DNA of 64,000 nt, from assembly GCA_965267575.1 (NCBI GenBank), contig OZ254086.1:1568001-1632000 (forward strand). The letters are read 5' to 3'. Below, piece after piece: positions 25,305-64,000 of the stretch (the first letter of the stretch is position 1; each line of letters begins with the position of its first letter). The notes beneath the pieces are model-generated. The model saw only the letters and a list, made by a program, of their open reading frames with translations, was not told the DNA's origin and ran no database searches. Made by a program: the position numbers and the translations under genes. Origin of the DNA: Calditrichales bacterium. GTDB taxonomy: Bacteria; Calditrichota; Calditrichia; Calditrichales; J004.

Positions 25305-26078
25305 TTACTTAAGCAGCACAATTCGATTCGTTTTTACAAGATCGTCACTTTGCAGACGCAGAAAGTAAATACCGGAAGAAACCAGTTGTCCCGCATCATC
25401 CAGGCCATCCCAGGATGCTTCATAACTGCCTGCGCCGAATTTCGCATTTACGATAGTTCTTACCTGTGCGCCGCGTGCATCATAAACAGCCAGTTTTACC
25501 GATCGTGTTTTATCCACTGTAAACGGAATGCGTGTCGTCGGGTTGAACGGGTTGGGATAGTTGTCTTTTAGTTCAAAGCTGTAGGCCACGGCCGGCTCTT
25601 CGATGGAGGTTGCCATCAGGAGAGCGTTAATGGTGTTATTGATCGTGCTGGTTTCCGCGGTAGGTCTGTACAGGCGAATGATGCCTTCCTGATCTATGAC
25701 CGTGCTGTTTTGGTAAGAGGCCCCGTAAGCACTTGCTGTGCCACTGCCATTCATAAGTAGATCGTACTCTATCTTTGATGCGGATTGGAAGTCCAGGACC
25801 TGACTCAGGCTTCCATTGGCAACGTCAATCGCCATGCCCTTAAAAACATCGCTCGAGTATTGATCCACGATTTCCTTTTGCGTTGTTTCCCCCTCCGCAC
25901 GGCAAATAGAACACCAATAGGCAATCCAGTTAATATAAATGACCTTACCCTCGTGATCGCTTAAGCGAACCTTGCTTCCGTCCGGCTTGCTCAACTCAAA
26001 ATCCGGCGCTTCGTTGCCCTCTTGTGCCATGGCCGGCAGCACAAAAAATACAACCAACAAAATAATCAGCTTTTTCAT
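25305..26078 (-). CDS. Secreted redoxin (thioredoxin fold, CSIC) with C-terminal FlgD-Ig/T9SS-type sorting-like domain
   Basis: Signal peptide, APDFEL, YWCSIC; C-terminus NYPNPFNPTT...WDG...SGIYFLRL...IVLLK. Confidence 0.85.
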   Translation of the reverse strand: MKKLIILLVVFFVLPAMAQEGNEAPDFELSKPDGSKVRLSDHEGKVIYINWIAYWCSICRAEGETTQKEIVDQYSSDVFKGMAIDVANGSLSQVLDFQSASKIEYDLLMNGSGTASAYGASYQNSTVIDQEGIIRLYRPTAETSTINNTINALLMATSIEEPAVAYSFELKDNYPNPFNPTTRIPFTVDKTRSVKLAVYDARGAQVRTIVNAKFGAGSYEASWDGLDDAGQLVSSGIYFLRLQSDDLVKTNRIVLLK

Positions 26079-48916: not shown

Positions 48917-50050
48917 GTGTCACACTCAAAAGCTGAGCAAAAGAACAGTACTCTTTTTGTCCGTGAGGTGAAAATTGTTACGGTTCTTTCAGTTATATCT
49001 TTAGCGTTGCTTGCGGTTGAAATAAACATTCTACCCACCCTTGATGGTCTTGAACCAATTATGGTGGTTAATGTTGGCCTTTATTATATAATAGTTTTTC
49101 TGATTTGGAGATCAGCCAAGCTTTCATTAGCTAACAAAACTGTTTCTAAATTCTTTCTATTTGAGTTTGTCGTAATAGCAGTTTATTCATCTTTCGGGCT
49201 TATAGTATTTTCTCCGCTTACCCTGGATATATACATTATTTCATTTAATTTGAATTTTCTGATTGTGCCAGCAATCCTATTGATGACAACAACTTATATC
49301 TTTTTTTACTCATTAACGCCAAAGCTTCCAAGAAAGAATATAATATATATATCCATTTTTATTTCTATACTTGTTACGGTGTTGGTCAATCTAAATATTA
49401 ATATTTCCAATGATCTCTTCCAGCATAACTTTGACACCGACAGCTTACCAAATAAAATTACCGAAAACGCCTATTATGTTCATCTAATAAACCTGTCGTT
49501 TTTGATTTTTATTTGGGTGACTTATCACCAGGGAAATTACATATTGTCTGAATATTTACCTTCCGTTATTAGCATGCATACGCTTATGATTATGAACGAA
49601 ATATATCAATTATATAATATTAATAATCTCATTGATAACTTTGTATCTGCCCAATATTTTAACATGTTGCTAAATATCGGTTTTTTAAGTGTGTGGGTTA
49701 TTCGCTTGCGCTATATTTCGGACCCCACTAATAAAAAGAACGAGCATTATGTTCTAAATTATGATCTTTTGCGAGATTTTGTTAATAAGCCTAAAAACAA
49801 CTTATTGGAGATCGTCTTAAAAAAATGGGGCCGGATGCGCGTTTATACTGTTTCTATATTTCTGTTTACAATTATCAGTATACCTCTCCTTTTTTTGGGC
49901 AATTTAAATCATTTTATGCGTATTAACATGTTGTTGCTTGTATTTTTCTGGATGGGTGGTATGGTATACGCAGTCTACTACACGCAGAAGCGATGGCTAA
50001 AACAGATTCGCTTTATGATCAACAAACCCAAAAAAAGAGCAGAATCTTAA
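48917..50050 (+). CDS. AT-rich polytopic membrane protein, unknown function
   Basis: About 9-10 hydrophobic segments; SD GAGGA, GTG start; directly upstream of a soluble hybrid kinase. Confidence 0.7.
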   Translation: MSHSKAEQKNSTLFVREVKIVTVLSVISLALLAVEINILPTLDGLEPIMVVNVGLYYIIVFLIWRSAKLSLANKTVSKFFLFEFVVIAVYSSFGLIVFSPLTLDIYIISFNLNFLIVPAILLMTTTYIFFYSLTPKLPRKNIIYISIFISILVTVLVNLNINISNDLFQHNFDTDSLPNKITENAYYVHLINLSFLIFIWVTYHQGNYILSEYLPSVISMHTLMIMNEIYQLYNINNLIDNFVSAQYFNMLLNIGFLSVWVIRLRYISDPTNKKNEHYVLNYDLLRDFVNKPKNNLLEIVLKKWGRMRVYTVSIFLFTIISIPLLFLGNLNHFMRINMLLLVFFWMGGMVYAVYYTQKRWLKQIRFMINKPKKRAES

Positions 50051-51564: not shown

Positions 51565-52689
51565 TTACTTATAAAAGCCTTCCAGACAATCTAAAATGTA
51601 TTCTTTTTGTTCCGCTGTCAGCTCCGGATAAATAGGAATTGCAATGGTTTCATCCGCTGCTTTTTCCGCAACCGGAAACTCCCCCTTCTTATAGCCCAGA
51701 TACTTAAAGCATTGTTGATTATTGAACGTTACCGGGTAGTATACCTCACAGCCGACATTTTTTTCCTTTAGATATTGTAGCAGCTCATCCCTGCGTGGTA
51801 CACGTAATACATACTGATTGTAAATGTGCCGATAACCCGGCTTGCTGTAAGGCGTTGTTATTATGCCGTCCAGACCTCGTTCCTTAATACCGGCTGAATA
51901 GTATTCCGCATTTTTCTGACGGCCTTTTGTCCACTCATCCAGGTACTTTAGTTTTATGTCCAGCACCACGGCCTGCAAGGCATCCAGACGAAAATTTCCG
52001 CCTATCATGGCGTGATAGTATTTAGGGTTGGCGCCATGGTTGCGCAGGTAGGTCATTTTGTCAAAAAGCTCTTTGCTTTCTGTTGTTACCAGGCCGCCAT
52101 CGCCAAAGCCACCCAAATTTTTGCTGGGGAAGAAAGAGAAACAGCCAATCGTGCCAAATGTACCCGCTCTTTGGCCCTTGTTGTCTTCGGTGCCAATGGC
52201 CTGGGCCGCATCTTCAATAACGTGCAGATTGTGCTTTTCAGCGATCCGCATTATAGCTTCCATGTCCGCTAACTGCCCGTAGAGGTGAACAGGAATGATC
52301 GCCTTTGTTCTGGGTGTTATGGCGTCTTCAATTTTAGCAGGGTCTATGTTATAGGTGTCTGCTTTGATATCTACAAAAACGGGCTTTGCATTCAGCCGCG
52401 AAACACAGCCGGCCGTCGCAAAAAACGAATAAACCGGTACAATAACCTCATCATCCGGTTGAATATCGAGAGCCATCAGTGCCTGTAACAATGCATCGGT
52501 GCCCGAAGAAACGCCAAGGGCGTAAGTGCTGCCGCAATAGCCGGCAATGTTGCATTCGAATTCACCGACCCGTGGTCCCATAATAAAATACTGGGAATCC
52601 ATAACCTCTTTCACTGCTGGTTCGATCTCAGCGCGCAGCTTTTCATATTGCGCCTTTAGGTCTAACAGCGGTACTGTAATGTTATCCAT
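51565..52689 (-). CDS. DegT/DnrJ/EryC1/StrS NDP-sugar aminotransferase
   Basis: SGTDAL, FFATA, PVHLYG, EDAAQA, SFFPSKNLG. Confidence 0.94.
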   Translation of the reverse strand: MDNITVPLLDLKAQYEKLRAEIEPAVKEVMDSQYFIMGPRVGEFECNIAGYCGSTYALGVSSGTDALLQALMALDIQPDDEVIVPVYSFFATAGCVSRLNAKPVFVDIKADTYNIDPAKIEDAITPRTKAIIPVHLYGQLADMEAIMRIAEKHNLHVIEDAAQAIGTEDNKGQRAGTFGTIGCFSFFPSKNLGGFGDGGLVTTESKELFDKMTYLRNHGANPKYYHAMIGGNFRLDALQAVVLDIKLKYLDEWTKGRQKNAEYYSAGIKERGLDGIITTPYSKPGYRHIYNQYVLRVPRRDELLQYLKEKNVGCEVYYPVTFNNQQCFKYLGYKKGEFPVAEKAADETIAIPIYPELTAEQKEYILDCLEGFYK

Positions 52690-52715
52690 GTGCTAAATAT
52701 CCTTATTTGTTAGAT

Positions 52716-53669
52716 TTATTTGCCCTTTTTTAATTCATGCAGAATATTAAGAAATATTCCTGCCAATTTATTGTATTTTCTTATTTCAAAATATGGTACC
52801 TGCCTGGCGCCAAATGAGCGGAAGAAACGTTCTATTGGTTCGATCATGCTACCCTCAAAGTCAAAAACTTTTCCGTTATCAAAAGCGAAGCGAATAGCCT
52901 CCCACATAATAAGTGAACCTGCACCACTTGATCTAAACTTACTGTCACTGCCTCCCATCAAATAGTACACAGTTGTTTTGTCCCAAACAAGATATATACC
53001 GGCGTGATAATTTCCCTGCGCATCTTTGGCCAACAGGATACGCCGTACATTTTCCTTTAGGCATGCGGCATCGAGATTTAAAAAATCCTCTTTGGAATAG
53101 GGCATCTCTTTGCCCTGGCGCGCGAACGTTTTTGAGTTTAACCTGTAAAACAATTCAGGATCGTCGGATTCGCTAATATACAGACTCTTGGAAGCTTTTT
53201 TTATCTGTCTGCGAATACTTTCCTTAACGTTTTGTAATGCCTCTTCCTCCTTTTGCGGTTCCAGCCTGTAGGTATACCTGGTTGTTTGCCGATACCCGGC
53301 CCAATACCAGGGCAGCCAATTTGTCACCGCGGGACTAAACGAGACATTGAATTTGTGAAAATCCGGTAATTCCGTCCTCAATTCCGTCGTAAGTTTTTGT
53401 TCGTAGCTTAGTCGATTATAATAGTTTTGCTCTTTGGGATATATTATAAGCGGTCCAAGATAGGGGGTAAACGGCGGTTTAACGATCGATCTGATCAGGC
53501 TCTTTTCTTTAAAGTTAACCGGAAAAAGAAGGCCAGGTTCGTTACCGTGATTTATAACTATTGCACGCCACTTTTCTCCGCAAACTGCATCCAACCACCA
53601 AGGTTGAAAAAAGATTGGAGCAGAATCCAGACTGGCGATTGTTTTTGCGTAAAGTTCTTTGCTATGCAT
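52716..53669 (-). CDS. GNAT/FemAB-like acyltransferase of a glycan locus
   Basis: IFFQPWWLDAV, TPYLG, TRYTY, YYLMGG, FDFEGS..EPIERFFRSFGA. Confidence 0.8.
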   Translation of the reverse strand: MHSKELYAKTIASLDSAPIFFQPWWLDAVCGEKWRAIVINHGNEPGLLFPVNFKEKSLIRSIVKPPFTPYLGPLIIYPKEQNYYNRLSYEQKLTTELRTELPDFHKFNVSFSPAVTNWLPWYWAGYRQTTRYTYRLEPQKEEEALQNVKESIRRQIKKASKSLYISESDDPELFYRLNSKTFARQGKEMPYSKEDFLNLDAACLKENVRRILLAKDAQGNYHAGIYLVWDKTTVYYLMGGSDSKFRSSGAGSLIMWEAIRFAFDNGKVFDFEGSMIEPIERFFRSFGARQVPYFEIRKYNKLAGIFLNILHELKKGK

Positions 53670-54612
53670 AATAGTCTTGCATTTTTACCAAAGCATTTTC
53701 AAGCATCTGTTTTTCTTCAGTCTTTTTGTTTTTGATTTCCTTTTCGCCGATTAAAATTGGTTTGGCTGAATGACGCTTTATCGGTTGTATCCGCAAAATT
53801 CCCCAAACATTATTTATTTCTTTTTCCGGTCTTTCCTTAAAGTTTTCAAACCGGATTTCCGCATGATGCTTAAAGCGTGTTATATCGCGTTCAACATGTT
53901 TTTCAATCGCCAGTATTTGGCCGATAATCTGCTCAGGCCATGGTCTGTCTTGCAGGTCTTGATATTCCGGTGGAACTACCGACCACCATTTTTGCGGATC
54001 GTTATTTGCCTTAAGCCGCGCTTCACGGATAGAGAGCGCTGTGTCAATAATATTGCGTTTAATACGGATAATTTTAGCATCAGGCCAAACCTTTGCAATT
54101 GCTTGCAGTCGCAATGTAGTCATCAAATTTTTAAAGACTAGGGGCTGCTGATAGCGCAGGAAAGCCTGGCCAATAGCACAATTTAACGCATTTGCCAAAT
54201 CCGTTTCTATTTCCGTAATAAGGTTCGCGCTACCGGTACTGTTTTTTGGGAACCACTTGTACCAAAGTCTTCCGCTTTCGCTGGGTGCGTGTAATCCGCA
54301 TTGCTGCGTGTTGCCTAAATTACTTTTGTAGCAGTTATGCGGCTTGTCGTTAAAAAAAATTCTGCTTAAAGCCGATCCAATACGGGGATTACGATAAAAC
54401 ATATCAACCAGATTATCTACATAAATAACCTTATAAATATTTGTAATGTATTGATAAATCAATGTAGAGCCACTTCTGGGTGGTCCGACAAGAAATATAA
54501 TATTTTTCCCGTTGTCCGTTGTTTCCGGCTTTTTCAATAGCGCCTTTTCGATGACGCTTAAGAAAGGGCTGCCGTATTTTGCGAAAAGATGTAATGGATA
54601 TGAGATGTCCAC
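53662..54612 (-). CDS. PAPS-dependent sulfotransferase
   Basis: 5'-PSB motif FLVGPPRSGSTL; 3'-PB motif IKRNIIDTALS. Confidence 0.88.
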   Translation of the reverse strand: MDISYPLHLFAKYGSPFLSVIEKALLKKPETTDNGKNIIFLVGPPRSGSTLIYQYITNIYKVIYVDNLVDMFYRNPRIGSALSRIFFNDKPHNCYKSNLGNTQQCGLHAPSESGRLWYKWFPKNSTGSANLITEIETDLANALNCAIGQAFLRYQQPLVFKNLMTTLRLQAIAKVWPDAKIIRIKRNIIDTALSIREARLKANNDPQKWWSVVPPEYQDLQDRPWPEQIIGQILAIEKHVERDITRFKHHAEIRFENFKERPEKEINNVWGILRIQPIKRHSAKPILIGEKEIKNKKTEEKQMLENALVKMQDYYA

Positions 54613-55890
54613 TTAGGTCGTTACTCCAAACTTGGCTCGTATATTTCTATTCAGCAAATAAAGAATCAACAAATAATAACCACCCGCTGTGACCGAAAAG
54701 GCGCTTAACATTAAAATTACGTTATCCTGAAATAGATACATAGCACCGAAGCGTACAGCAAGAGAAATCAGGGTTAGAATAAATAATGACTCCTGTTTAT
54801 CGATAACCGAAAATGTCTGACTAATGGGAGAGGCAATGAATTGTGCAAGCAGGAAAAATGTCATTATCTGCATATACAAAGCGCTTTGGCTCCATTCCGC
54901 CTCCAAAAGTATATCCACGGCCAAAGGTGCAAAAAGTAATATACCAATCGCTGGAAGCAGACCGACTTTACCTAGTTTTTTTATAGATGATATGAAGAAT
55001 GAATGCAATTTTTCCGCACTCTTGTTATAAGCGTCGCTTGCTGATTTAATATAAACCTGTGAAACAGAGCGACTAACCATGCGGAACGGTGTGGCGGCGA
55101 ATTTATTTGCCATCATATACAAACCAACCACTGCTTCATTAAAAAAAGCACTAAACATAAAAACAGGCAACTGCATGGCGAAGGTATTTACGAAAACGCT
55201 CGGGGTATTGATAAACGCGAATTTGCGATATTGCCAGTAAATTCGTCCCAGGTCATTAAACCAGCCAGACATGTTTTTTGGGCTGGTTCCCTTGAGGCCG
55301 AAGAAACAAACTGCGACGAATCCGCAAATTTGAGCAATTATCAGAAAAGTGGCGTTGCGCCCCCAAATGAGTCCAAGCGCCAATGCCGAAAGTTGTATCA
55401 ATAGAGCCTGTACAACTCGCAAGACAGAAAGCCGTGAAAATTTTTTATCCCGAATTAATATGTATTGGACAATCTGCCACAGACCCATAAAAAAAACACC
55501 CAGGATGACATAATAGAGGTAATCATAAAGCAATTCCGCGCTCAGCAGGCGAAAAACCTCATGTCCGAAAAATAAAAAGACCACACTGCACAGCAGAGTG
55601 AATAAGATCAGATTCAAAAAAGCCACAAGAGTGATTTTGTCTGCCTCTTCCTGGCTGGTAGGTATGACAATAGCCAGCTCATAGCGCAAAGATCCCACGA
55701 CGCTCAGGCTGGTGGCTGTTGATAAAAAAAGCTGAAGATTACCAAAGTCACTTTTTGTAAAAATGCGTGTTAGCACGGGCAGTGCTATTAATGTAATTAC
55801 CTGAGCCGCCAGTGAGCCGGTAAAAATATCCAGAACGTTCTTGTTAAATTCCGAGCCATACAGGCGCTTTTTTAAGCTTCTAAGATCCAT
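54613..55890 (-). CDS. wzx: Wzx-type oligosaccharide flippase
   Basis: GSLAAQVI...PVLTRIF..DFG, LRYELAI, about 12 TMs. Confidence 0.88.
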   Translation of the reverse strand: MDLRSLKKRLYGSEFNKNVLDIFTGSLAAQVITLIALPVLTRIFTKSDFGNLQLFLSTATSLSVVGSLRYELAIVIPTSQEEADKITLVAFLNLILFTLLCSVVFLFFGHEVFRLLSAELLYDYLYYVILGVFFMGLWQIVQYILIRDKKFSRLSVLRVVQALLIQLSALALGLIWGRNATFLIIAQICGFVAVCFFGLKGTSPKNMSGWFNDLGRIYWQYRKFAFINTPSVFVNTFAMQLPVFMFSAFFNEAVVGLYMMANKFAATPFRMVSRSVSQVYIKSASDAYNKSAEKLHSFFISSIKKLGKVGLLPAIGILLFAPLAVDILLEAEWSQSALYMQIMTFFLLAQFIASPISQTFSVIDKQESLFILTLISLAVRFGAMYLFQDNVILMLSAFSVTAGGYYLLILYLLNRNIRAKFGVTT

Positions 55891-57283
55891 GAACCTGTCT
55901 GGAATCTTTGTCTGGAAAGTGTACTTTTTGATCCCGGCTCCGGATTTCCTTGAGAAATGCACCAGGCAAAATGGATTTGACGTTGCACTCCGTCAGCCGG
56001 GCCAGAATATCTTTATAGAGCTTTGTTACCCCGGGATATTCTTCTTCTTCAAAAAAGCTGTTATGCCACAAAAGCACGAAAAGACCTGAATATTTTTCAC
56101 AAATCTCTACCATGTTTTTAACGGCTTTATAGGCACCCCTTGCATCCAGATTCATATAATCGAAAAGCGTTCTGTCCATAAGGCACAACGGATATTCCCA
56201 AACGTCTATAATGCGCCCTTTTTCCAAATCGTAAGGCTTAAACGGCAGGCAGTAGCCGTTTCGCCAGCCGATCATATCCGCAAAGCCCCAGCTTGAGTCA
56301 TATTTAAGACCCACGCGTTCATGTATCCGCAGCGTATCGGGATATTTAAAGCTGAGCCAGTGCTGTCTGACGCCTTGTATCGATTGCGGCGCATAGCCGT
56401 CGAGCTCTTCGTAATTGGCTTGCAATATATGTCTGTTTTTGCGTGAGGCATATGTACTGTGCAAACCTATTTCATCCCCGGATTCGGTTATGAATTGCAT
56501 CAACTCGGTTATTCTTTTTTCGCTGAAGCGATATTTTGCGTCGATTTTCTTGTCTCCTGCCGGCAGGAAAAACCAGGTGGAGCGCAGATCATACTTTTTG
56601 CCCAGGCCTTTTAGCCAGCGAAAATTCCAGTAGCTATTATTTTTGCCTGTTATATAGTTATGCGCAGCTTCGAGAATGCCGGGCAGATGACGCGCTTTTT
56701 TCTCCTTTATCAAAGACAGAGTAGCCATTTTAATGCGGCCGATTGTCCATTTGTCAACGCGATCCACGTCGTGGGTTAGCATTACACCCATATCACAATC
56801 CTGCCAGAGGCTTCTTTTCCTGAAGGGGATTCCATGTATTTTACAAAATTTGAAGCATGCTTTTTCGAGGATAGAAAACCATTGGCTAACAACGGGATAA
56901 GCCATTTTGTAAAACCGGCTTTGTATACTGTCTGAAAATTTAAACCGCTTGAGACGATCGCCCTTGTAAGGAAGGGTTTCCTGGTATCCGGATAGCAGGT
57001 AAAAGGCGGCCTTAAAGATATCATGCTTAAATATAATGTTTCCCGATTTGTCAAATACGTACCACTCTTTTGATGGAGAACACGGGAAAAGAACCGGCGT
57101 GTCGTTAATGGTAAATTCCTTATCGGGTCCGCCGTTTGAAGGTGGCATAAAAATAGCGGGGCCGGATAAAGGTTTGTCGTCGCCATAACTTAAATGACGT
57201 GCCAGAGAGCTAATTTCAAAGTGATTCATGTGCAGGTGATAGAGAATGTATTCTACCTGATCGTTGTTTAGTGCCTGTTCCAT
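55880..57283 (-). CDS. Polysaccharide deacetylase (CE4/NodB-like) with N-terminal accessory domain
   Basis: LTHDVD, EIGLHSTY, RQHWL, YDSS, LLWHN motifs; TGATG overlap with the upstream gene. Confidence 0.85.
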   Translation of the reverse strand: MEQALNNDQVEYILYHLHMNHFEISSLARHLSYGDDKPLSGPAIFMPPSNGGPDKEFTINDTPVLFPCSPSKEWYVFDKSGNIIFKHDIFKAAFYLLSGYQETLPYKGDRLKRFKFSDSIQSRFYKMAYPVVSQWFSILEKACFKFCKIHGIPFRKRSLWQDCDMGVMLTHDVDRVDKWTIGRIKMATLSLIKEKKARHLPGILEAAHNYITGKNNSYWNFRWLKGLGKKYDLRSTWFFLPAGDKKIDAKYRFSEKRITELMQFITESGDEIGLHSTYASRKNRHILQANYEELDGYAPQSIQGVRQHWLSFKYPDTLRIHERVGLKYDSSWGFADMIGWRNGYCLPFKPYDLEKGRIIDVWEYPLCLMDRTLFDYMNLDARGAYKAVKNMVEICEKYSGLFVLLWHNSFFEEEEYPGVTKLYKDILARLTECNVKSILPGAFLKEIRSRDQKVHFPDKDSRQVHGS

Positions 57284-58515
57284 CAGGTCAATCTCTTTTT
57301 GTAAAACTCGACCATTGGCTCGATTGTTTGATCCCAAAAAACGGGACTGTCCTTTAATAGCTTTTTAGATCCGGATTCAGCTGATTTCTTAAATTCCCCG
57401 TATTGCCCGTGAATTTTTTCTATCGCTTGGGAAACCGCTCCTTCCTCTACTTCCGTGACGGCCAGCCCCAAGCCGTTTTTTTCAACAAATTCCCTCATCA
57501 TGGTGGCGTTGCTGGTAACAATGGGCTTACCCATAGCCATATACTGGTACATTTTAGTGGCGATCGTATTGTTGATCTCTCTACTAACGGGGTGCGGGAT
57601 AAAAATGCAGATTTCTGAAGCCGCGATGTAGGAAGCCAGTTTATCAACCGTCAACCAACCAAGAAATTCAACGTGTCTTTCAACACCAAGCTCTTTGGCC
57701 AATTCCAGCGGATGTTTCATGCGTGCCGCAACTCTTCCGGCGACAACAAACCTGACATTGGGAATCTGTTTTCTAAGCCGTGGCAGGCTTTTAATAACAA
57801 CATCTACGCCCCGTAAAACATCGATGGCGCCCGCGTAAAAAATCATGAAATCGTTTTTATACTTCTCTACAATTTTAGCATCAATATTTTCAGGACTAAA
57901 CCAACGCCGGTGCGGCGTGTTGGGCACTGTAATTATTTTATTCGCGTTTATTCCCACTTCATATATATATAATTCTCTTAACTTGTCCGTCACGGTGATC
58001 ACAAGGTCAGCTTGATTAAGGTACTTTCTTTCGAACTTCTTCCAGTTGCCGAGATGTTTTACGATTTTGCCGAGAAGCGTATTGTAGTGAGCTGTGTTAA
58101 CGACCCAGTTGCTCCAGTATTCGTGCTGATCGCAGACGACTTTGAAGCCTGTTTCAGCAGCCAGCTTAATGACAATGTCCGTCATCGGCAGATCATGAAT
58201 ATGAACTACGTCCGGATGGCTTTCGGCGATAAACTTTTTTATTTGGCGCTTCCAGATGAAACGGTAAAAGGGAAGTACTAAATAGGCTGCCCCAAGCTTT
58301 TTTACGATCCAATAAGGAATGTGAAAACGATTGATTTTTATACCATAGTAGTTTTCTGACCTTTTGTAGTTCTTTGATTTTGAATAGCATAACAGATGGA
58401 CCTCGAAACCGTTTTCGATAAGGCTCAACGCTTCTTTCTCCGGCCGGTCATCCGGCGGGAAGTCCCGTTCCAGGATCATGCCCACGCGGGGATTTTTAAC
58501 TTTTTTCTTTGTCAT
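57283..58515 (-). CDS. GT4 glycosyltransferase
   Basis: DDRPEKEA, VHIHD, YAG..RGV, TKMYQYMAMGKPIV. Confidence 0.9.
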   Translation of the reverse strand: MTKKKVKNPRVGMILERDFPPDDRPEKEALSLIENGFEVHLLCYSKSKNYKRSENYYGIKINRFHIPYWIVKKLGAAYLVLPFYRFIWKRQIKKFIAESHPDVVHIHDLPMTDIVIKLAAETGFKVVCDQHEYWSNWVVNTAHYNTLLGKIVKHLGNWKKFERKYLNQADLVITVTDKLRELYIYEVGINANKIITVPNTPHRRWFSPENIDAKIVEKYKNDFMIFYAGAIDVLRGVDVVIKSLPRLRKQIPNVRFVVAGRVAARMKHPLELAKELGVERHVEFLGWLTVDKLASYIAASEICIFIPHPVSREINNTIATKMYQYMAMGKPIVTSNATMMREFVEKNGLGLAVTEVEEGAVSQAIEKIHGQYGEFKKSAESGSKKLLKDSPVFWDQTIEPMVEFYKKRLT

Positions 58516-59038
58516 ATAAAACCAGATGTTCTTCGGCTGTTAAGCGTTGTTTCAGTTTTTCGTATTCGGCGCTGTTCAGCGTTAAAACGGAAATCTTGCG
58601 CTCAATCAGTTGCTCGGTTTTCCGTGTTACCCGTTCCACTTCCTGCATGTTGATATTGTCACCCACCAGTACCAGGTCGATCAGACCGCTGTCTTTACCG
58701 CTGGCATAATCGCCGCGCACAAAAGCAAAACGCAGGTCGCCGATGCGGTTGATAATATTATTGATCACGCTGGAAATGCCGGTGGATTTAAGCACAATAT
58801 TGCGGATATCCTCAAACAGCGGATGAGTGGTGTTGGCTTTGTAGATCTTTTGCCGGCCGTCGGTTTCGGCATGCAGCAGATGGGCTTCACTGAGTTTGTT
58901 CAACTCGACGCGGATGCCGTTTGTCGATTCGCCAAACTCCGTGGCCAGTTGACGCAGATAGCCGCGCGTGTCGGGATTAAGAAAAAACTTAAGCAGCAGC
59001 CGTATGCGTGTTTGCGATGTAATTATTGAATCGAGCAT
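58496..59038 (-). CDS. ArsR-like winged-helix + minimal nucleotidyltransferase-like domain regulator
   Basis: IITSQTRIRLL..FF, YLRQLA..ESTNGIRVELN; C-terminal GDYASG.DSGLIDLVLVG. Confidence 0.8.
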   Translation of the reverse strand: MLDSIITSQTRIRLLLKFFLNPDTRGYLRQLATEFGESTNGIRVELNKLSEAHLLHAETDGRQKIYKANTTHPLFEDIRNIVLKSTGISSVINNIINRIGDLRFAFVRGDYASGKDSGLIDLVLVGDNINMQEVERVTRKTEQLIERKISVLTLNSAEYEKLKQRLTAEEHLVLYDKEKS

Positions 59039-59049
59039 TTATCTTTTAT

Positions 59050-59098
59050 GAGTAAAATAATTGCTCGTAAATGTACGGGTCAATCTGCTCTATGTCAA
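59050..59098 (-). promoter_or_regulatory. Internal sigma70 promoter with palindromic operator at +1
   Basis: Minus strand TTGACA (59098-59093)-17bp-TACATT (59075-59070); GAGTAA-aataa-TTGCTC at 59050-59066. Confidence 0.7.
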
Positions 59099-59136
59099 TA
59101 GTGAATTAGGGTTGGGATGCAGGAAATAAGAAAATG

Positions 59137-61011
59137 TCACTTTCCGATTGTGGCGTTATCGTAAAGCTCTTCCGCCCAGCGCAGTAAAAACTCCAGGCCG
59201 GCCAGTTTCAGGGCATGCTCGAGTTGGTGCAGCGAGCTGCCTTCATTGGCGCGCAAGTCATCCAGCCAGATATCAAAAGCGGGCTTTTCAATAATTGCTG
59301 ATAGTTTTTCGGGATTAGCCAGATAATCAGCTACGGGCGAATCGGCGAGCAGATGGCGGTATAGCGGCATGTAGTCCCAGGCTGCTTGGAGATGCGTCTT
59401 TACAGGAACGCCGGCCTTGTTTAGCAGCTTGTTGCGCATTCGGGCCGATTGCTTCCAGGCATAGCGCAGGTAGAAGGGGATAAAGGTAAGCGCATTCTTC
59501 GGCACCATGTTGATACCGCCGAAATCGGTTCTTTCCCGTGCCAGCTTCGGATCGATGGCGTACATGACGGCGCGTTGAAAATTGGACTTGTTCCAGCGCC
59601 ATTTGGGCGGCAAAGGCAGGCCGATCTCCAGGTTGCGGCGCAGCAGAAGCGGGGAAAATGAACGGTAAAGGGAATTAGCCACGCTGTTGGCGATTACCGC
59701 GTAGTTTTGCCAGCGCGTCAGCGAAAATTTGTCTATCTGCATGGAAACGGGCAGGTGCTCGTAACCGCTGATGCTGTCATTCAGCATGTCGAGAAAGTAA
59801 TCGGCGGAGTCCGCTTTCACCTTCATGAAGGTATCGTTGAAAAAAGAGTCGGGGTAGTTTTTGTTGAGCGGGCGCAGCTTCAAAAACATGGATGGATTGA
59901 TCTTACCTGGCTCGCGGTACAGGTTGAGCGTGTAAACTTCTTCCCAGAAGCAGTCTTTGTAAAAGGGGCCGCCCGCGCCGTTTATCAGGCTGTCGCCATA
60001 CTGCGCCTGCTGCTCGCGCATGTAGAGGATGCGTCCTAAGAGGTAGCCCGGCTCATCGCCGCTGCCCAGTAAAAGCGCCTTTTCAAACAGCCCCGCATAA
60101 CGCTCTCTAAAGTCATCTTTTAATTGTATGGTATGATGTTCGATGTTGTGACGCTTTACCAGCTCGCGTACTTTAGCCACTTCCACAAAATCATCTTTGC
60201 CGTAGGTGCTGGTGTTAAAGCCCAGGCCCTGGCTGCGGAAAGAGGCCACCAAAAGGCGCGAATCCTGGCCCAGTGTTAAATCCATGCAGGGATTCTGTGT
60301 CAGTTTGTTCAACAGCCGGGCTGTCTCGCGTGTCTGTTGCACCATAAGCTCCACGTTTTCACGGAAGCTTTTTGGCGTAACGGCATCCGGAAATTGCCAG
60401 TAGCTTTCGCGGACGATTTCCCGGTCAACCGTATAGACAGACGCCGGTTGTAAACGATCGACCCCTGTAAAAACCGTGCGCTCACTTAGCAGGTAATATC
60501 GCCAGAACAATTCGTTCAGGGCGTGCAGATCGGGTTGCGGTTTGATAAAGGCGCTGCAGGTGAGAGCAAAGGGCGTCACCATAAAAAGGCCGTCTTTTTC
60601 GGCGATATAGTTGATGCGGCTTTTGATGATGTCATTGCCGATGACGAAAATGTCTTTCTGCGCGTCATACAGCTTAATCACGTAATGGCCGTCGAGCTGG
60701 TCAAAAAGGGCCTTGCCTTTGCGCCGGTAAAGCTGCCACAATTCGGACGCGTTATAGACTTTGGTTTCGTTAAGTGCGAACACGCTGCCCTCAACCGCCA
60801 GCCAGCTACCGTCCTCCTCGCGGTGAAAAATATTGCCGTCCTCCTCGCGGCGCAGGATGGCCAGCCGCCCGCGGGTCACAGGCAAAAACTCCATCTGCAC
60901 GAAAAACGATCCGTAATTAGTGCGGAGAAACGCTTCCAGAGCGCGACACATTTGGTCAAAGCGGGCATGACTTCCGCCCTGCTTTTGTCCGAAAAGAATA
61001 ACCGCTGCCAT
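59137..61011 (-). CDS. Asparagine-synthetase-like amidoligase (divergent)
   Basis: Ntn-like N-domain (QLDGHY) without Cys1; PP-loop variant DLTLGQDSR; INGAGG. Confidence 0.7.
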   Translation of the reverse strand: MAAVILFGQKQGGSHARFDQMCRALEAFLRTNYGSFFVQMEFLPVTRGRLAILRREEDGNIFHREEDGSWLAVEGSVFALNETKVYNASELWQLYRRKGKALFDQLDGHYVIKLYDAQKDIFVIGNDIIKSRINYIAEKDGLFMVTPFALTCSAFIKPQPDLHALNELFWRYYLLSERTVFTGVDRLQPASVYTVDREIVRESYWQFPDAVTPKSFRENVELMVQQTRETARLLNKLTQNPCMDLTLGQDSRLLVASFRSQGLGFNTSTYGKDDFVEVAKVRELVKRHNIEHHTIQLKDDFRERYAGLFEKALLLGSGDEPGYLLGRILYMREQQAQYGDSLINGAGGPFYKDCFWEEVYTLNLYREPGKINPSMFLKLRPLNKNYPDSFFNDTFMKVKADSADYFLDMLNDSISGYEHLPVSMQIDKFSLTRWQNYAVIANSVANSLYRSFSPLLLRRNLEIGLPLPPKWRWNKSNFQRAVMYAIDPKLARERTDFGGINMVPKNALTFIPFYLRYAWKQSARMRNKLLNKAGVPVKTHLQAAWDYMPLYRHLLADSPVADYLANPEKLSAIIEKPAFDIWLDDLRANEGSSLHQLEHALKLAGLEFLLRWAEELYDNATIGK

Positions 61012-62006
61012 TACAACCGACCTATCTTTTTTAACGCTTTGTATTTCACCGTGTACATACGCAGCGCGTTTACGATTGTATCCTGCGCGCGGAAAATATC
61101 GGCGTATTGTTTAAATACATCGATCCCCGTAAGGCGGTGCATCATGTCCAGCTGGTTTACATGCAGGCGTTGGTAGGCGATGGTAGCGGGATCAATCTCC
61201 GGGTGCCACGGCGCCAGGCACAGATTGTAGCGTGACCAGAAGCCAAGGTCATAGTGCGGCAACACTTTGGATACAGTCTCAACACCCTGATCAAAAAGGA
61301 CGCGCGCGGTTTTATCATCCGGGAAAACACGTACAAAATCATACAACCCGCACAGTGCGAAAATTTTGCCATTCAAAACCATGGTCGGCACCTTGGAGGT
61401 GTATTCTTCATAAAACGGCCCCCACTCCGTAAACGAGGTGACACCGCCTTCTGCCACCGGATGATGAAACGATTTCAAGGCATCTTTAGCCATTGTCGCG
61501 TATTTTTCCTCATTCGTCAGTTGAAATGCGCGCAGCAAAATGGACAGGCCGCGGCTTTGTGAAAAGGCCGATTGCCACGGTCCCGGATTTTTATACTGCG
61601 GCAGCGCCACATCGGTAAGCCAGCGCGCGCCAAGCGTTTCGTCGCGGTGGGCATTGCCATAAAACCAGTCGGCAAATTTCAAAAAACGTTTCTTGTCGCT
61701 ATCCGAATGGGTCTCCAACCAGGTGTGAAAAATGGCCAGCCCCATCTGCCCGATCGAGATGGGGAAATAGACAAACTCCTTGTCGGTCACATCGATGTAG
61801 GTGCGGTTGATAGGAATGCCGTTTGCATCAAACTTTTTGATCAGCGCCTGGTCCTTGCCGGTGGAGAGGCGCTGTTCGCGGAAGATAAAATAGTAATGCT
61901 TCAATTCCTGTCCGTGCAGATCCCGCGGGATCTCATATCGCACCTTCAGGCTTCTCCAGTCCTGGAGAAACTTGTCCAGCATAAACAGCTTTTTTTTCAA
62001 ACTCAT
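61011..62006 (-). CDS. D-glucuronyl C5-epimerase family protein
   Basis: WQSAFSQ, EGGV, FYEEY, VLNG.IFALCGLYD, LPHYDLG.WSRYNL, AYQRLHVNQL match the GLCE C-terminal domain. Confidence 0.85.
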   Translation of the reverse strand: MSLKKKLFMLDKFLQDWRSLKVRYEIPRDLHGQELKHYYFIFREQRLSTGKDQALIKKFDANGIPINRTYIDVTDKEFVYFPISIGQMGLAIFHTWLETHSDSDKKRFLKFADWFYGNAHRDETLGARWLTDVALPQYKNPGPWQSAFSQSRGLSILLRAFQLTNEEKYATMAKDALKSFHHPVAEGGVTSFTEWGPFYEEYTSKVPTMVLNGKIFALCGLYDFVRVFPDDKTARVLFDQGVETVSKVLPHYDLGFWSRYNLCLAPWHPEIDPATIAYQRLHVNQLDMMHRLTGIDVFKQYADIFRAQDTIVNALRMYTVKYKALKKIGRL

Positions 62007-63292
62007 GCAACTATCTCGTCAAAAATCCGGGCCAGTTCGCCGGTTAATGTTTTTCGCTCATAACGGTCGATTGCCTTAGCCGGCGGCGTTAAATTATCAC
62101 CGCTTTGCCAGCGGCCGTACAGGTTGCGCAGCCAATGCAGGGCGTCGTCACTTTTTGAAAAAAGGCGCCCGCTTTCGGTTTCGTTCAGGATTTCCGCGGC
62201 TTCTCCGGTAAAGGGGCTTAAAGCCACAACCGGCCGCCGTGCCGCCAGATATTCAAACAGCTTGCCGGGCAGATGTCCCTCATAATGCGTTGTTTTTTCC
62301 GTAAAAAGCAGCAGAACCGCAGCCCCGCTCATGATGCGCAGTGCTTCCCTGTGCGCCACGTACCCCGGAAAACGCAGCCCGCTCCAGTCACCAAAAATAT
62401 TTTCGATATCGGAGCGGATATGTGATGCCACTTTGCCTGCCAGCGTTAAGCGTACTTTTTTCTTCCGTTCATCATCCGCGTTTATCCACCCGGCCAGTGC
62501 CCTGAAAAAGCGCGGATAATAGCGGTTTTCGTTAAGACCCCCTACATATGCCAGATCAAAACAATCTGTTTCAGGCGAGGGCATATTCTCAAAGTCCGGC
62601 GCGTCAAAGCCATTAGGCAAAATGTAGATGTTTTTGTCTTCCGGTTTTTCCAGCAGGCCGGCGAATTTTTTGCTGACGCAGACGGCCAGGTCGCATTGCT
62701 GTAAAACTTTACGCTCCAGCGCACGATCCTTTTTTGTAGCCCGTTGGCTGCGCTGCTCACCATAATAGTGAATGCGGCTCCAGGGATCTCGGAAATCGGC
62801 CACCCATTTTAGCCCGTGCTTTTGCGCCAGTTTCATGGCAATAAGGTGGCTGGTTGGCGGCGGCGAGGTAGACCATACAACCGCCGGCTTGTGCTCGCGA
62901 ATGATCTTATCCGCCGTGGAAAGCGCGAAGGGCAGCCAAAATTTTTTGGCATCCGGGATAAACCAGTTCATGCGGATAGAGTGGGCCAGACGTTGCTTCC
63001 AGCTCAGGTTTTTCTGGGCAAGAACGCCCACAGTCGTTTCCCCGCTGCCGCGTCCTGCAAACCGTCGGTAAAGCGCGTCCGGCTCCGGGTTGCGGCTACG
63101 AAACACCGGCACCTCCGGTGGTACTTCCTCCGCGAGGGAGGCATCCGTGGCCGGGTAAACGCCGTCCTTAACCGTGAGCACAACCGGCTGCCAGCCAAAG
63201 TGCGGCAGGTAGCGCGCAAACTTCAGCGGACGCTGCACGCCCGGCCCACCCGCGGGCGGCCAGTAATAGCTGATCATCAGGACTTTGTTCAT
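62003..63292 (-). CDS. GT4 glycosyltransferase
   Basis: YYWPPAGGPGVQR, IPDAK, STSPP, ADFRDPW, PNGFD, PGKLFEY. Confidence 0.92.
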   Translation of the reverse strand: MNKVLMISYYWPPAGGPGVQRPLKFARYLPHFGWQPVVLTVKDGVYPATDASLAEEVPPEVPVFRSRNPEPDALYRRFAGRGSGETTVGVLAQKNLSWKQRLAHSIRMNWFIPDAKKFWLPFALSTADKIIREHKPAVVWSTSPPPTSHLIAMKLAQKHGLKWVADFRDPWSRIHYYGEQRSQRATKKDRALERKVLQQCDLAVCVSKKFAGLLEKPEDKNIYILPNGFDAPDFENMPSPETDCFDLAYVGGLNENRYYPRFFRALAGWINADDERKKKVRLTLAGKVASHIRSDIENIFGDWSGLRFPGYVAHREALRIMSGAAVLLLFTEKTTHYEGHLPGKLFEYLAARRPVVALSPFTGEAAEILNETESGRLFSKSDDALHWLRNLYGRWQSGDNLTPPAKAIDRYERKTLTGELARIFDEIVA

Positions 63293-64000
63293 TGTCCGCT
63301 TTGGGCCGCTTTCTTCCTTTGGCGGATAATTCCGCTGAGCAGCGTCCAGGCGATGATCAGGTAAACGATGCCCAGGGAGACGCTGGCGTAGGCCACGTTG
63401 CGGTAGTAGGACGCCGGCTCAAAACGAAGATCCACGCTATGCTGTCCCGGCGCAATAACAACGGATTGCAGGGCGTGGTTGGTTCTGTAAATTGCCTGTG
63501 TCTCCTGGTCGTCAACATAGAGGTGCCAGCCCGGCGGATAGTGCAGCTCTGAAATAACCAGCAGGCTTTGCTTGTCCGTGTAAACCTCCAGGGAAAGCAG
63601 GTTGGGATTAAACTCCTTCACTGTCACTTTATGACTGTCCGGTATGGCAATCGATTCGGCGAGCGGCTGCTCCAGTATGGCGATACTGTCGGGGTCGAAT
63701 TCGGGTGAATTTATAAAACGCAGGCGATCGTATTCGTCCTCAATCACGCGGGTCTGGCCGACGAAAAAGGCGCGCGCGTTGCTATCGCTAAAGCGGTAAA
63801 CAAACTGTTTCTGGTCCTCATCGCGGAAGGCCGGCTGCAGTTGCGGATGCGGAACGGCCTGCGGCATCACAACGTATTTCACGTTAAGCATCTCCAGCAC
63901 ATTCCAGTTGATCGGCAGGCGTTGGTCCCAGCCGTTAAAAATACAGTTTTCAACAATCTCCTCAATCGTGTACATCTTGATCGGTGTATAACCGCCCACC
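63289..64000 (-). CDS. YfhO-family membrane protein (3' part; gene starts beyond the window)
   Basis: GGY.P.K, MLNVKY, RAFFV, LVISELHYPPGW, RTNHAL, PGQH.V..RFEP, C-terminal TM. Confidence 0.85.
   Translation of the reverse strand, partial: VGGYTPIKMYTIEEIVENCIFNGWDQRLPINWNVLEMLNVKYVVMPQAVPHPQLQPAFRDEDQKQFVYRFSDSNARAFFVGQTRVIEDEYDRLRFINSPEFDPDSIAILEQPLAESIAIPDSHKVTVKEFNPNLLSLEVYTDKQSLLVISELHYPPGWHLYVDDQETQAIYRTNHALQSVVIAPGQHSVDLRFEPASYYRNVAYASVSLGIVYLIIAWTLLSGIIRQRKKAAQSGQ

Follow-up and report, generated by a model that had tools for sequence, protein, structure and literature searches.

Homologues of the animal glucuronyl C5-epimerase (GLCE; domain PF06662) have been listed for many prokaryotic O-antigen and capsule loci (Raedts 2011, PMC3068255). 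A second set of sugar-modifying enzymes is described for the Wbp/Vim pathway of Porphyromonas gingivalis, whose product is the linking sugar for type IX secretion system (T9SS) cargo, a 2-N-aminoacyl-3-N-acetyl-glucuronamide to which the sortase PorU attaches proteins with a C-terminal domain (CTD) (PMC7468200). There, the sugar of the Wbp pathway is proposed to lose its 2-N-acetyl group to the putative deacetylase VimE; it receives serine or glycine from VimA, which matches the model TIGR03019, the uronamide is formed by WbpS, an AsnB homologue, and VimF is a predicted glycosyltransferase (PMC7468200). Here, we describe a glycan locus in which predicted relatives of both enzyme sets stand side by side. 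It lies on the minus strand of a stretch of 64,000 nucleotides (positions 1,568,001 to 1,632,000 of contig OZ254086.1, assembly GCA_965267575.1; hereafter the window) from a Calditrichales bacterium of the phylum Calditrichota. Genomes and loci used for comparison carry our own labels (G and L numbers).

The locus is composed of two separable modules, a conserved core with high GC content at third codon positions (GC3) and a mobile cassette with low GC3. The core holds two family 2 glycosyltransferases (GT2), a YfhO-type GT-C glycosyltransferase, a family 4 glycosyltransferase (GT4b), the GLCE-family epimerase, and an AsnB-like protein. The cassette holds a helix-turn-helix/nucleotidyltransferase-like protein (HTH-NTase), a second GT4 (GT4a), a deacetylase, a Wzx-type flippase, a sulfotransferase, a FemAB-like transferase, and a DegT-type aminotransferase. 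The explanation that we favour, and to which we give an even chance, is a mosaic surface-glycan operon that would tailor a short lipid-linked oligosaccharide flipped by Wzx, and not a heparosan-like polymer. The five enzyme kinds that the initial annotation had reported in a co-oriented minus-strand locus with Wzx were confirmed at their coordinates by open reading frames (ORFs) and Pfam. It had not mentioned the AsnB-like, HTH-NTase, FemAB-like, and DegT genes (the last two just outside its range) or the part of the operon beyond the window.

Minus-strand ORFs, touching or overlapping, run unbroken over window positions 51565-64000 (Table 1). Past the window edge the operon continues on the same strand with two GT2 genes, a DUF4292 lipoprotein gene, and a TPR lipoprotein gene up to a divergent PBP1 gene; its other end is bounded by a convergent hybrid histidine kinase gene. 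In all, it comprises 15 genes, and the remaining genes of the window are housekeeping genes. The full YfhO-like gene (L002:289-2790) encodes 833 aa (PTPS_related) with at least 10 hydrophobic segments. As the initial annotation had remarked for the window, no polymerase is visible: neither a Wzy polymerase nor an initiating phosphoglycosyl transferase (Bac_transf- or WecA-like) was found among the 15 operon genes, in or past the window. GC3 is 0.59-0.67 from the TPR gene to the AsnB-like gene and 0.40-0.50 from GT4a to the FemAB-like gene (0.40 in the sulfotransferase gene), at a genome GC of 0.496, and the switch coincides with the 98-nt gap. This gap also contains the best sigma-70-like match of the region (minus strand, TTGACA-17-TACATT, 10/12, 59098-59070). 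Because the total of promoter-like matches is not above that in shuffled sequences (21 vs 17.8, sd 3.8), the site is taken as a hint only; terminator counts are not above shuffles either. Transmembrane (TM) segments are found neither in the epimerase nor in the sulfotransferase or the other tailoring enzymes, and the epimerase also lacks a signal peptide; these enzymes would therefore be cytoplasmic and act before flipping. For two genes, starts downstream of the ORF limits are indicated: the deacetylase likely starts at 57283 (467 aa), and translation of Wzx probably begins at the Met codon of residue 25 (around 55890), judging from the translation and the deacetylase stop at 55880. The top NCBIfam matches of the DegT protein, which has no TM segment, are PseC and WecE-like, every one under its cut-off.

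Table 1. Genes and gap of the glycan locus within the window, in the order of transcription
Feature	Position	Strand	Evidence and remarks
YfhO/PTPS_related GT-C, C-terminal part	63289-64000	-	Pfam YfhO E 3e-8; gene continues past window edge
GT4b, GT4 glycosyltransferase, 429 aa	62003-63292	-	Pfam Glyco_transf_4 and Glyco_trans_1_4
GLCE-family uronyl C5-epimerase, 331 aa	61011-62006	-	Pfam C5-epim_C E 1.2e-42
Cys-less AsnB-like adenylating amide synthetase (predicted), 624 aa	59137-61011	-	no Pfam match; NCBIfam asn_synth E 3.8e-9
Gap between modules, 98 nt	59039-59136		operon's only real gap
HTH and nucleotidyltransferase-like protein, 180 aa	58496-59038	-	weak Pfam Polbeta 4.7e-4; weak NCBIfam ArsR-type HTH 7e-4
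GT4a, GT4 glycosyltransferase, 410 aa	57283-58515	-	Pfam Glyco_trans_1_4 and Glycos_transf_1
DUF7033 and CE4-fold de-N-acetylase, ORF 485 aa	55880-57337	-	Pfam DUF7033 E 1.3e-13
Wzx-type flippase, ORF 449 aa	54613-55962	-	Pfam Polysacc_synt_3 E 1.1e-14; nine hydrophobic segments
PAPS-type sulfotransferase, 316 aa	53662-54612	-	Pfam Sulfotransfer_3 E 1.1e-13
FemAB/GNAT-like N-acyl (aminoacyl) transferase, 317 aa	52716-53669	-	Pfam Acetyltransf_6 E 1e-13; FemAB 2.8e-8
DegT/DnrJ/EryC1-type pyridoxal phosphate (PLP) sugar aminotransferase, 374 aa	51565-52689	-	Pfam PF01041 E 1.1e-118; operon's last gene

The epimerase scored 146 bits against C5-epim_C (PF06662; cut-off 23.3) and matched human GLCE (6HZZ) in a phmmer search with an E value of 2.4e-17; the GLCE structures of human and zebrafish together span 2.4e-17 to 1.5e-16. 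Residues E201, Y202, N212, Y260, and Y278 align identically with human E499, Y500, N510, Y560, and Y578 (positions 409, 410, 420, 470, and 488 of the 6HZZ chain), the catalytic residues listed for human GLCE in PMC13308652. The proposal that the animal catalytic set is kept in the motifs YEEY, SRYNL, and AYQRLH (at residues 199, 258, and 277) thus proved correct. All 45 full-length homologues from the phylum have E201, Y202, and Y278, and 42 have Y260; at position 212, Asn is found in 29 and Asp in the remaining 16. By its sequence, the enzyme looks catalytically competent. Apart from a 13-residue motif, the alignment with GLCE spans query residues 108-303 and 6HZZ chain residues 315-513; according to this alignment, the N-terminal beta-hairpin dimerisation domain and the central beta-sandwich domain of animal GLCE are not present in the 331-aa protein. 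As it has no hydrophobic segment and matches only the C-terminal helical part of GLCE, we regard it as a cytoplasmic minimal form.

There is a slim chance that this GLCE homologue does not convert glucuronic acid (GlcA) into iduronic acid (IdoA) and acts instead on another uronic residue (a 2,3-diacetamido-uronic acid, or mannuronic acid to the L-gulo form) or at the level of nucleotide sugars. Such a specificity would agree with the Asp at position 212 in about a third of the homologues, with the Wbp-type GFO_IDH_MocA oxidoreductase and hexapeptide acetyltransferase encoded beside the epimerase in L008 and the hexapeptide transferase in L017, and with the second nucleotide-sugar dehydrogenase of the genome, which is nearer to models of UDP-ManNAc/UDP-GlcNAc dehydrogenases; paralogues of differing specificity were also expected by Raedts 2011 (PMC3068255). 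Against it stands the fully GLCE-like catalytic set. Moreover, the sole bacterial homologue known as an epimerase according to a 2026 paper, that of Bermanella (PMC13308652), is reported in a 2026 review to act on GlcA in heparosan-type chains (PMC12834895), and the O antigens of Escherichia coli O112ab and Shigella boydii 15, both of which carry a homologue, contain L-IdoA (PMC3068255).

The neighbours of the epimerase are conserved across several phyla. A scan of genome contigs yielded 17 epimerase loci, 16 of them close (49-74% identity) and belonging to metagenome-assembled genomes of Calditrichota, Marinimicrobia, Cloacimonadota, Fidelibacterota, Saprospiraceae, and Ignavibacteriales. When the 15 proteins of the operon were searched by tblastn, 15 of the 17 loci had a match to GT4b, which stands directly 5′ of the epimerase in 14 and on the opposite strand in L008, and the AsnB-like gene was found directly 3′ of the epimerase in seven. 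The order GT4b, epimerase, AsnB-like also occurs in Marinimicrobia, Cloacimonadota, and Fidelibacterota loci. Within the phylum, PF06662 was detected above cut-off in 50 of 86 genomes, and at E <=0.001 in 34 of the 53 high-quality genomes. For a census, ORFs in stretches around the epimerase from 47 relatives were labeled with purpose-built hidden Markov models (HMMs) and phmmer; the 47 loci counted are those with a full epimerase ORF, including that of the window's own genome and leaving aside L076, which has no full ORF. In 28 of them, the gene next to the epimerase on its upstream side is GT4b; among the 44 loci that extend at least 1.3 kb upstream, this holds for 27. The AsnB-like gene comes immediately after the epimerase in 16 loci, or in 15 when only the 39 that extend 1.9 kb or more downstream are counted. 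YfhO was found in 28. The whole string TPR-DUF4292-GT2-GT2-YfhO-GT4b-epimerase is shared by the own genome, L041, L045, L047, L052, L053, L054, L057, and L080. Both core GT2 proteins have two C-terminal TM segments; one is ArnC-like (206 bits) or PgfS-like (166 bits), in both cases below the equivalog cut-off. In the Cloacimonadota locus L011, a gene for a formylglycine-generating enzyme (FGE-sulfatase; L011:11192-12397, minus strand) lies just 3′ of the epimerase on the opposite strand.

None of the 71 homologues of the AsnB-like protein bears a functional name, and a Pfam domain is on record in two of them only (GATase_7); the ESM Atlas returned only generic 'hypothetical protein' clusters, some members of which have Asn_synthase or GATase_7 domains. 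Searched against the PDB, a profile of 29 sequences matched the hydroxyamidotransferase TsnB9 (7ylz, 4.3e-6) and E. coli AsnB (1ct9, 1.5e-3). The AlphaFold model (pLDDT 89.1) was matched by Foldseek over both domains to TsnB9 (7ylz, E 8e-19, TMq 0.68) as well as to carbapenam synthetase, beta-lactam synthetase, and AsnB, so that in the predicted structure the protein has the two-domain AsnB fold. We take an N-terminal M-C-G and a PP-loop of the form SGGxDS to be the canonical AsnB motifs. In the 29 sequences, M1-A2-G3 is nearly invariant where AsnB has M-C-G, i.e. the glutaminase Cys2 is lost, and T246-x-G248-Q249-D250-S-R252 stands at the position of the PP-loop. From the modeled fold and these motifs we infer an ATP-dependent amide-forming enzyme that would be unable to use glutamine. 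Since the start of its gene overlaps the epimerase stop by one base, the uronic carboxylate would be its most economical substrate. If this is right, amidation would remove from the uronic residue the negative charge that defines a glycosaminoglycan (GAG). The GAG character put forward in the initial annotation is therefore doubtful, the conserved partner of the epimerase being a predicted amide-forming enzyme and a heparosan-type synthase being absent from the operon genes.

In three of the loci from the contig scan (L006:10996-16238, L012:846-6085, and L004:2500-6085), the AsnB-like partner is followed by three genes, and ORFs of the same lengths occur in L041 and L057. They encode a PLP enzyme resembling ThrC and cysteate synthase, a CysH reductase of 3′-phosphoadenosine 5′-phosphosulfate (PAPS; 186 bits vs cut-off 154), and a LysA-like decarboxylase. 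This trio could supply a sulfonated amine (e.g. taurine) for an amide link to the uronic acid.

The sulfotransferase of the cassette scored 52 bits against Sulfotransfer_3 (cut-off 27). Across 55 sequences, G48 in the loop GPPRSGST, R186, and S194 are invariant; we take the loop to be the 5′-phosphosulfate-binding motif (5′-PSB) and the region of R186 and S194 to be the 3′-phosphate-binding motif (3′-PB). As a single sequence the protein had no match among PDB sequences up to E 1, and only the profile matched. The 55-sequence profile is closest to TPST1 (4.4e-15) and the CurM sulfotransferase (1.1e-14), then TPST2; heparan sulfate (HS) 3-OST follows at 5.8e-4, NST (1nst) at 0.0029, and NDST1 at 0.05-0.07, the NST and NDST1 matches being confined to the 5′-PSB region (query 31-64). 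Assignment to the NST type is not supported, the profile being far nearer to the TPST/CurM O-sulfotransferases. Relatives are frequent: a word-based search gave 10 and an exhaustive phmmer search 2405 at E <=0.001. Within the phylum, the family occurs in at least 66 of the 86 genomes, with up to 23 matches per genome among the matches listed, and eight matches lie in the window's genome.

The precursor genes that the initial annotation had named, cysDNC and a UDP-glucose dehydrogenase gene, are present in the genome. The genes cysC, cysD, and cysN form a group at about 161-164 kb; the region at 170-175 kb encodes a UDP-glucose dehydrogenase that is TuaD-like (560 bits, cut-off 700), beside the second nucleotide-sugar dehydrogenase and a Wzc-like kinase. 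A Sat-type ATP sulfurylase (PF01747) was not found in the genome; CysD/CysN beside the adenosine 5′-phosphosulfate kinase fill its role. Of the sulfated, iduronate-containing GAG-like glycan that had been predicted, the competent-looking epimerase, the PAPS motifs, and the supply genes stand, and little points to a heparan-sulfate-like identity.

Further sulfotransferase genes of the same genome stand in other settings. Following flgK and flgL in the flagellar locus, a second FemAB-like/sulfotransferase/DegT set is found at G000:C1:3699216-3708160 (L092:9216-18160); it consists of a FemAB-like gene, a Sulfotransfer_3 gene (27% identical to that of the window), a 341-aa unnamed gene, a Stf0-like sulfotransferase gene, a DesI-like DegT gene, and a 1328-aa GT2-TPR gene, which suggests a sulfated flagellin glycan. 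Another sulfotransferase domain (G000:C1:4143999-4144652) lies within a 2970-aa ORF, and ORFs of this sort, of about 3000 aa, recur in the phylum. They recall, as we presume, the sulfotransferase modules of CurM-type polyketide synthases.

The deacetylase matched the VimE model (NCBIfam NF053580) with an E value of 2.5e-41 over profile positions 64-430 of 431, at 142 bits against a cut-off of 440, and the sole NCBIfam match of the FemAB-like protein was TIGR03019 (pepcterm_femAB), with 38 bits against a cut-off of 260. Because these scores are far below the curated cut-offs, the proteins are relatives at the level of families and not equivalogs. There are 283 homologues of the deacetylase, of about 450 aa, and 35 sequences show no variation at H171, D172, D174, H275, R306, Q307, and H308; we take H171-D172-x-D174, H275, and R306-Q307-H308 to have the metal-binding and catalytic roles of carbohydrate esterase family 4 (CE4). 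The predicted structure (pLDDT 92.9) has a CE4 fold, with Foldseek matches to 3rxz, 3s6o, 3qbu, 1z7a, ArnD (8t0j), and WbmS (3hft) at E values from 1e-10 to 8e-7. NDST1 was not among the 50 Foldseek matches with E <=0.001, the top ones being bacterial CE4 proteins; this is weak evidence. Together with the AsnB-like gene, the cassette would repeat the Wbp/Vim enzyme set at family level, and the pairing of a VimE-like with a VimA/FemAB-type protein fits an exchange of acetyl for aminoacyl groups. From the WbpA/WbpB/WbpD/WbpE set, the operon holds DegT (WbpE-like) alone; elsewhere in the genome, there are the second NDP-sugar dehydrogenase and a GFO_IDH_MocA oxidoreductase, whose sole NCBIfam match is inositol 2-dehydrogenase (43 bits).

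With this likeness in view, the operon might make an anchor glycan for T9SS cargo, that is, a form of the Wbp/Vim linking sugar of Porphyromonas that bears sulfate, an explanation to which we assign a very small probability. It is suggested by the presence of VimE-like, VimA-family, WbpS-like (AsnB-like), VimF-like GT4, and PorR-like DegT genes in one operon, by a strong PorU match in the genome (845 bits vs cut-off 420) together with some 49 other sites that match the same model in its C-terminal CTD part, and by the fact that the genome's sole DUF7033 gene sits in this operon. On the other side, PorU occurs in 85 of 86 phylum genomes, against 40 of 86 for DUF7033 and 50 of 86 for the epimerase; therefore, neither of the latter can be a general need for cargo anchoring, which weakens the explanation. 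The Vim-model matches are also below cut-offs, the likeness to the P. gingivalis proteins is known through family models only, and WbpA, WbpB, and WbpD are missing from the locus. PorU is encoded at G000:C1:3478070-3481339, and within the window the proteins at 25305-26078 and 38454-40094 carry FlgD_ig, the first also Por_Secre_tail.

To place the cassette, 34 further deacetylase loci of the phylum were surveyed. The sulfotransferase was detected with an HMM built from relatives of the window protein and the FemAB-like gene by phmmer with the single window protein; as these detectors can miss distant members, counts of absence given here for either gene are upper bounds. A FemAB-like gene followed by the deacetylase was found in 21 of the 34 loci, mostly with a GT4a homologue next (the 21 lie among L105-L126), so GT4a homologues hold the VimF-equivalent position beside VimE-like genes in relatives. 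This order is presumably that of vimA-vimE-vimF in P. gingivalis. It was not seen in the own genome, and in the window the FemAB-like gene is two genes away from the deacetylase. In the 21 loci with the FemAB order, the deacetylase has 503-559 aa in 20 and 417 aa in one, and the sulfotransferase was found in none. In the other 13, the sulfotransferase lies within a few genes in nine, and the deacetylase has 443-501 aa in all but three, of which one is cut off where the contig stops, another has 515 aa, and the third is without a labeled ORF. The deacetylase of the window belongs to a shorter VimE-like subclass (about 450 aa) that is paired with the sulfotransferase. In one of the loci with the FemAB order (L113:6605-13324), the FemAB-deacetylase set stands between rpoN, hslV, hslU, and an ornithine carbamoyltransferase gene, which precede it, and genes for a PMT_2 GT-C and a flippase, which come next; most of the other loci with this order have ORFs of corresponding length at their flanks.

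As a unit, the cassette recurs in the genomes G030, G031, G032, and G034 of the same family, with a variant in G035; the recurring unit comprises the HTH-NTase, GT4a, the deacetylase, Wzx, a shorter AsnB-like gene, the sulfotransferase, the FemAB-like gene, and often DegT. The HTH-NTase gene, the first of the low-GC3 cassette, stands at the same place in four of the 17 contig-scan loci, from other phyla, and in eight of the 47 loci of the own phylum. Since it always heads the variable part of these glycan loci, its product may be a regulator of the locus. Its copies (L006:16303-16851, L010:13259-13840, L012:6150-6698, and L013:12924-13451) are 63-66% identical across phyla, above the conservation of the enzymes around them.

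We also collected 80 metagenomic loci encoding relatives of the window deacetylase, many of them short. GT4a homologues were found in 30, the sulfotransferase in 17, YfhO and GT4b homologues in 13 each, and the FemAB-like gene in seven; the epimerase was found in none of the 80. In five of the eight closest loci (L128-L130, L132, and L133), the deacetylase is followed by the sulfotransferase.

The reading of the locus as one heparan-sulfate toolkit does not agree with these distributions, nor with the division into two modules by GC3. In G034, 294 kb of one contig separate the cassette from the epimerase, and in G030, G031, G032, and G035, cassette and epimerase are on different contigs. Such separation is what one would expect if core and cassette abut in the window yet modify two unrelated glycans, so that epimerised uronic acid and sulfate never meet in one molecule. 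The absence of the epimerase from the metagenomic deacetylase loci points the same way, as do the GC3 break with the best promoter-like site at the 98-nt junction and the possession by the cassette of its own flippase and GT4. We nevertheless consider two glycans unlikely. The modules are co-oriented, a terminator-like site was not found in the gap, and neither module alone holds an initiating transferase. Homologues of the core proteins YfhO and GT4b flank GT4a, deacetylase, and sulfotransferase genes in other lineages, each in 13 of the 80 metagenomic loci. In addition, the sulfotransferase is near the epimerase in 11 of the 47 phylum loci (six of the 21 that extend 6 kb or more to each side), and all three enzymes lie within about 12 kb in the own genome, G076, G077, G046, G036, and G068, which belong to different families. 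The co-occurrence of the three families, which the initial annotation had suggested computing, is found for epimerase and sulfotransferase in part of the loci, but the full trio is this close in those six genomes only.

In the mosaic operon that we favour, the ArnC/PgfS-like GT2 and the second GT2 stand beside the YfhO-type GT-C in a native core that is widespread in the phylum. GT4b would add or flank a hexuronic acid residue, whose C5 would be inverted in the cytoplasm by the GLCE-type enzyme through Tyr/Glu acid-base catalysis; the residues for this are seen, and the substrate is presumed. The AsnB-like enzyme, with its modeled fold, may then adenylate the carboxylate and convert it into an amide with ammonia or another amine. 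Perhaps under its own promoter, the cassette would contribute a VimE-like CE4 enzyme taking the N-acetyl group off an amino sugar or a diamino-uronic sugar, a VimA/FemAB-like transferase putting a new acyl group, probably an amino acid, on the exposed amine, and a TPST/CurM-like sulfotransferase adding sulfate from PAPS, most likely as an O-ester. DegT would provide the amino sugar, GT4a transfer it, Wzx flip the product, and the YfhO-type GT-C use or decorate what has been flipped. The sole basis for assigning both modules to one glycan is their head-to-tail arrangement in this genome.

Several points weigh against this scheme. Every substrate in it is deduced from sequence. The operon has no initiating transferase, Wzy, or ligase, and acceptor and chain length are not defined by its genes; WbpA, WbpB, and WbpD genes were not found among them either. 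The VimE and TIGR03019 matches are far under their cut-offs, as given above, and it is not certain that the AsnB-like protein uses ATP, given the unusual sequence of its PP-loop (T-x-G-Q-D-S). Finally, a FemAB-like gene was not detected in 13 of the 17 metagenomic loci bearing the sulfotransferase, G046 carries the deacetylase-sulfotransferase pair without one, and the most constant neighbour of the deacetylase in its own subclass is the sulfotransferase and not the FemAB-like gene, which favours direct use of the freed amine.

Direct use would mean that deacetylase and sulfotransferase form a split NDST-like pair yielding an N-sulfated amino sugar and, with the epimerase, a heparan-sulfate-like IdoA/GlcNS structure on a lipid-linked bacterial glycan. 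Besides the last points, several of the pair loci lacking a FemAB-like gene among them, this explanation can draw on the adjacency of the two genes in L044, L049, L050, L017, L093, L097, L099, L101, and L103 as well as in the closest metagenomic loci, on the distribution of the sulfotransferase in the phylum (in nine of the 13 loci without the FemAB-deacetylase order but in none of the 21 with it), on the preserved GLCE catalytic set, and on the genes for PAPS and UDP-GlcA supply. We consider it improbable, since the sulfotransferase profile is nearest to O-sulfotransferases and reaches NST and NDST1 only through the 5′-PSB loop, and the deacetylase is VimE-like over its full length with NDST1 missing from its 50 Foldseek matches with E <=0.001; the NDST-like logic of deacetylation and N-sulfation in the initial annotation becomes unlikely on the same evidence. 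Furthermore, the glycosyltransferases of the operon are GT4 and GT2 with no heparosan-type synthase among them, the epimerase consists of the helical domain only, without the N-terminal regions of GLCE, and it is coupled to a predicted amidating enzyme and was not met in the 80 metagenomic deacetylase loci.

Outside the operon, a 377-aa ORF on the plus strand (window 48917-50050) had no Pfam or NCBIfam match and lies where the GC content falls to 32% (window 49000-49999). Its neighbours are the hybrid histidine kinase gene and, on the other side, a gene resembling class II tRNA synthetases.

The families of the locus are all known ones, and bacterial glycan loci with GLCE homologues have been on record since 2011. 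A description of a bacterial gene cluster with C5-epimerase and sulfotransferase was not found in a narrow set of papers judged from titles and the beginnings of abstracts, in which the matching literature consisted of the Halobacterium papers and heparin reviews. Likewise, we found no mention by name of the Cys-less AsnB-like family as a partner of the epimerase, of the deacetylase-sulfotransferase pair, or of the phylum-wide core. The surprise is thus the gene company of the epimerase and not its presence. Judging by that company, an amidated residue of the L-iduronic type would be a regular component of the envelope in this phylum. Should a sulfamate be the product of the pair, heparin engineering could make use of it as an NDST analogue from bacteria, and with the epimerase there would be soluble cytoplasmic bacterial enzymes for all three steps of heparin maturation. 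If the pair makes none, the acetyl-for-aminoacyl chemistry of the Porphyromonas Wbp/Vim pathway would be extended to sulfated variants in another T9SS-bearing phylum.

Compared with the prokaryotic PF06662 candidates in O-antigen and capsule clusters (PMC3068255), the epimerase of the window has the same domain, catalytic residues, and company of glycosyltransferases, and a PF06662 gene is linked with L-IdoA in a Wzx-type O unit in E. coli O112ab and S. boydii 15 (PMC3068255). It is shorter than the Bermanella marisrubri enzyme (331 vs 448 aa; Raedts 2013, via PMC13308652 and PMC12834895) and has no signal peptide, whereas many homologues are predicted to have one (PMC3068255). Its partners GT4b, AsnB-like protein, and YfhO are fixed, and it occurs in more than half of the phylum genomes rather than strain by strain. 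As in the maturation of animal heparan sulfate (NDST, GLCE, and O-sulfotransferases), three reaction types are encoded side by side, with a true GLCE homologue among them. Unlike in the animal pathway, the enzymes would work in the cytoplasm, ahead of flipping by Wzx, rather than on a completed polymer within a lumen, and a heparosan synthase is missing. The deacetylase is encoded by a separate gene and belongs to the VimE family (DUF7033/CE4), the sulfotransferase is TPST/CurM-like, an amide synthetase is coupled, and the epimerase lacks the N-terminal domains.

The core resembles three-component glycosylation systems of the PgfS/PgfM (Streptococcus mutans) and ArnC/ArnT type in having a GT2 beside a YfhO/PgfM-like GT-C; CsbB/YfhO is, we assume, a further example. 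Unlike in these systems, the pair is joined to a set of GT4, epimerase, and amide synthetase, and its scores are below the equivalog cut-offs. With the Wbp/Vim loci of P. gingivalis and Tannerella forsythia (VimA, VimE, VimF, WbpS, PorR/WbpE; PMC7468200), the locus shares the combination of CE4, FemAB-family, GT4, AsnB-type, and DegT genes. Unlike Wbp/Vim, it has a shorter deacetylase paired with a sulfotransferase, a Cys-less amidotransferase, and an added GLCE-type epimerase, and no WbpA, WbpB, or WbpD. The lineage of the window bears a T9SS like the Wbp/Vim bacteria, and both T9SS-bearing lineages (the Porphyromonas type and Calditrichota) belong, as we take it, to the FCB group. In the N-glycan of Halobacterium salinarum, made with the epimerase Agl32 and two sulfotransferases, IdoA and sulfate occur on a short lipid-linked chain (PMC13308652; see also PMC11980604 and PMC12624080). 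Domain of life and carrier lipid differ, and the enzyme of the window, unlike that of Halobacterium, is a true GLCE homologue; by analogy, this N-glycan offers the best functional parallel for the epimerisation on a short chain that we propose.

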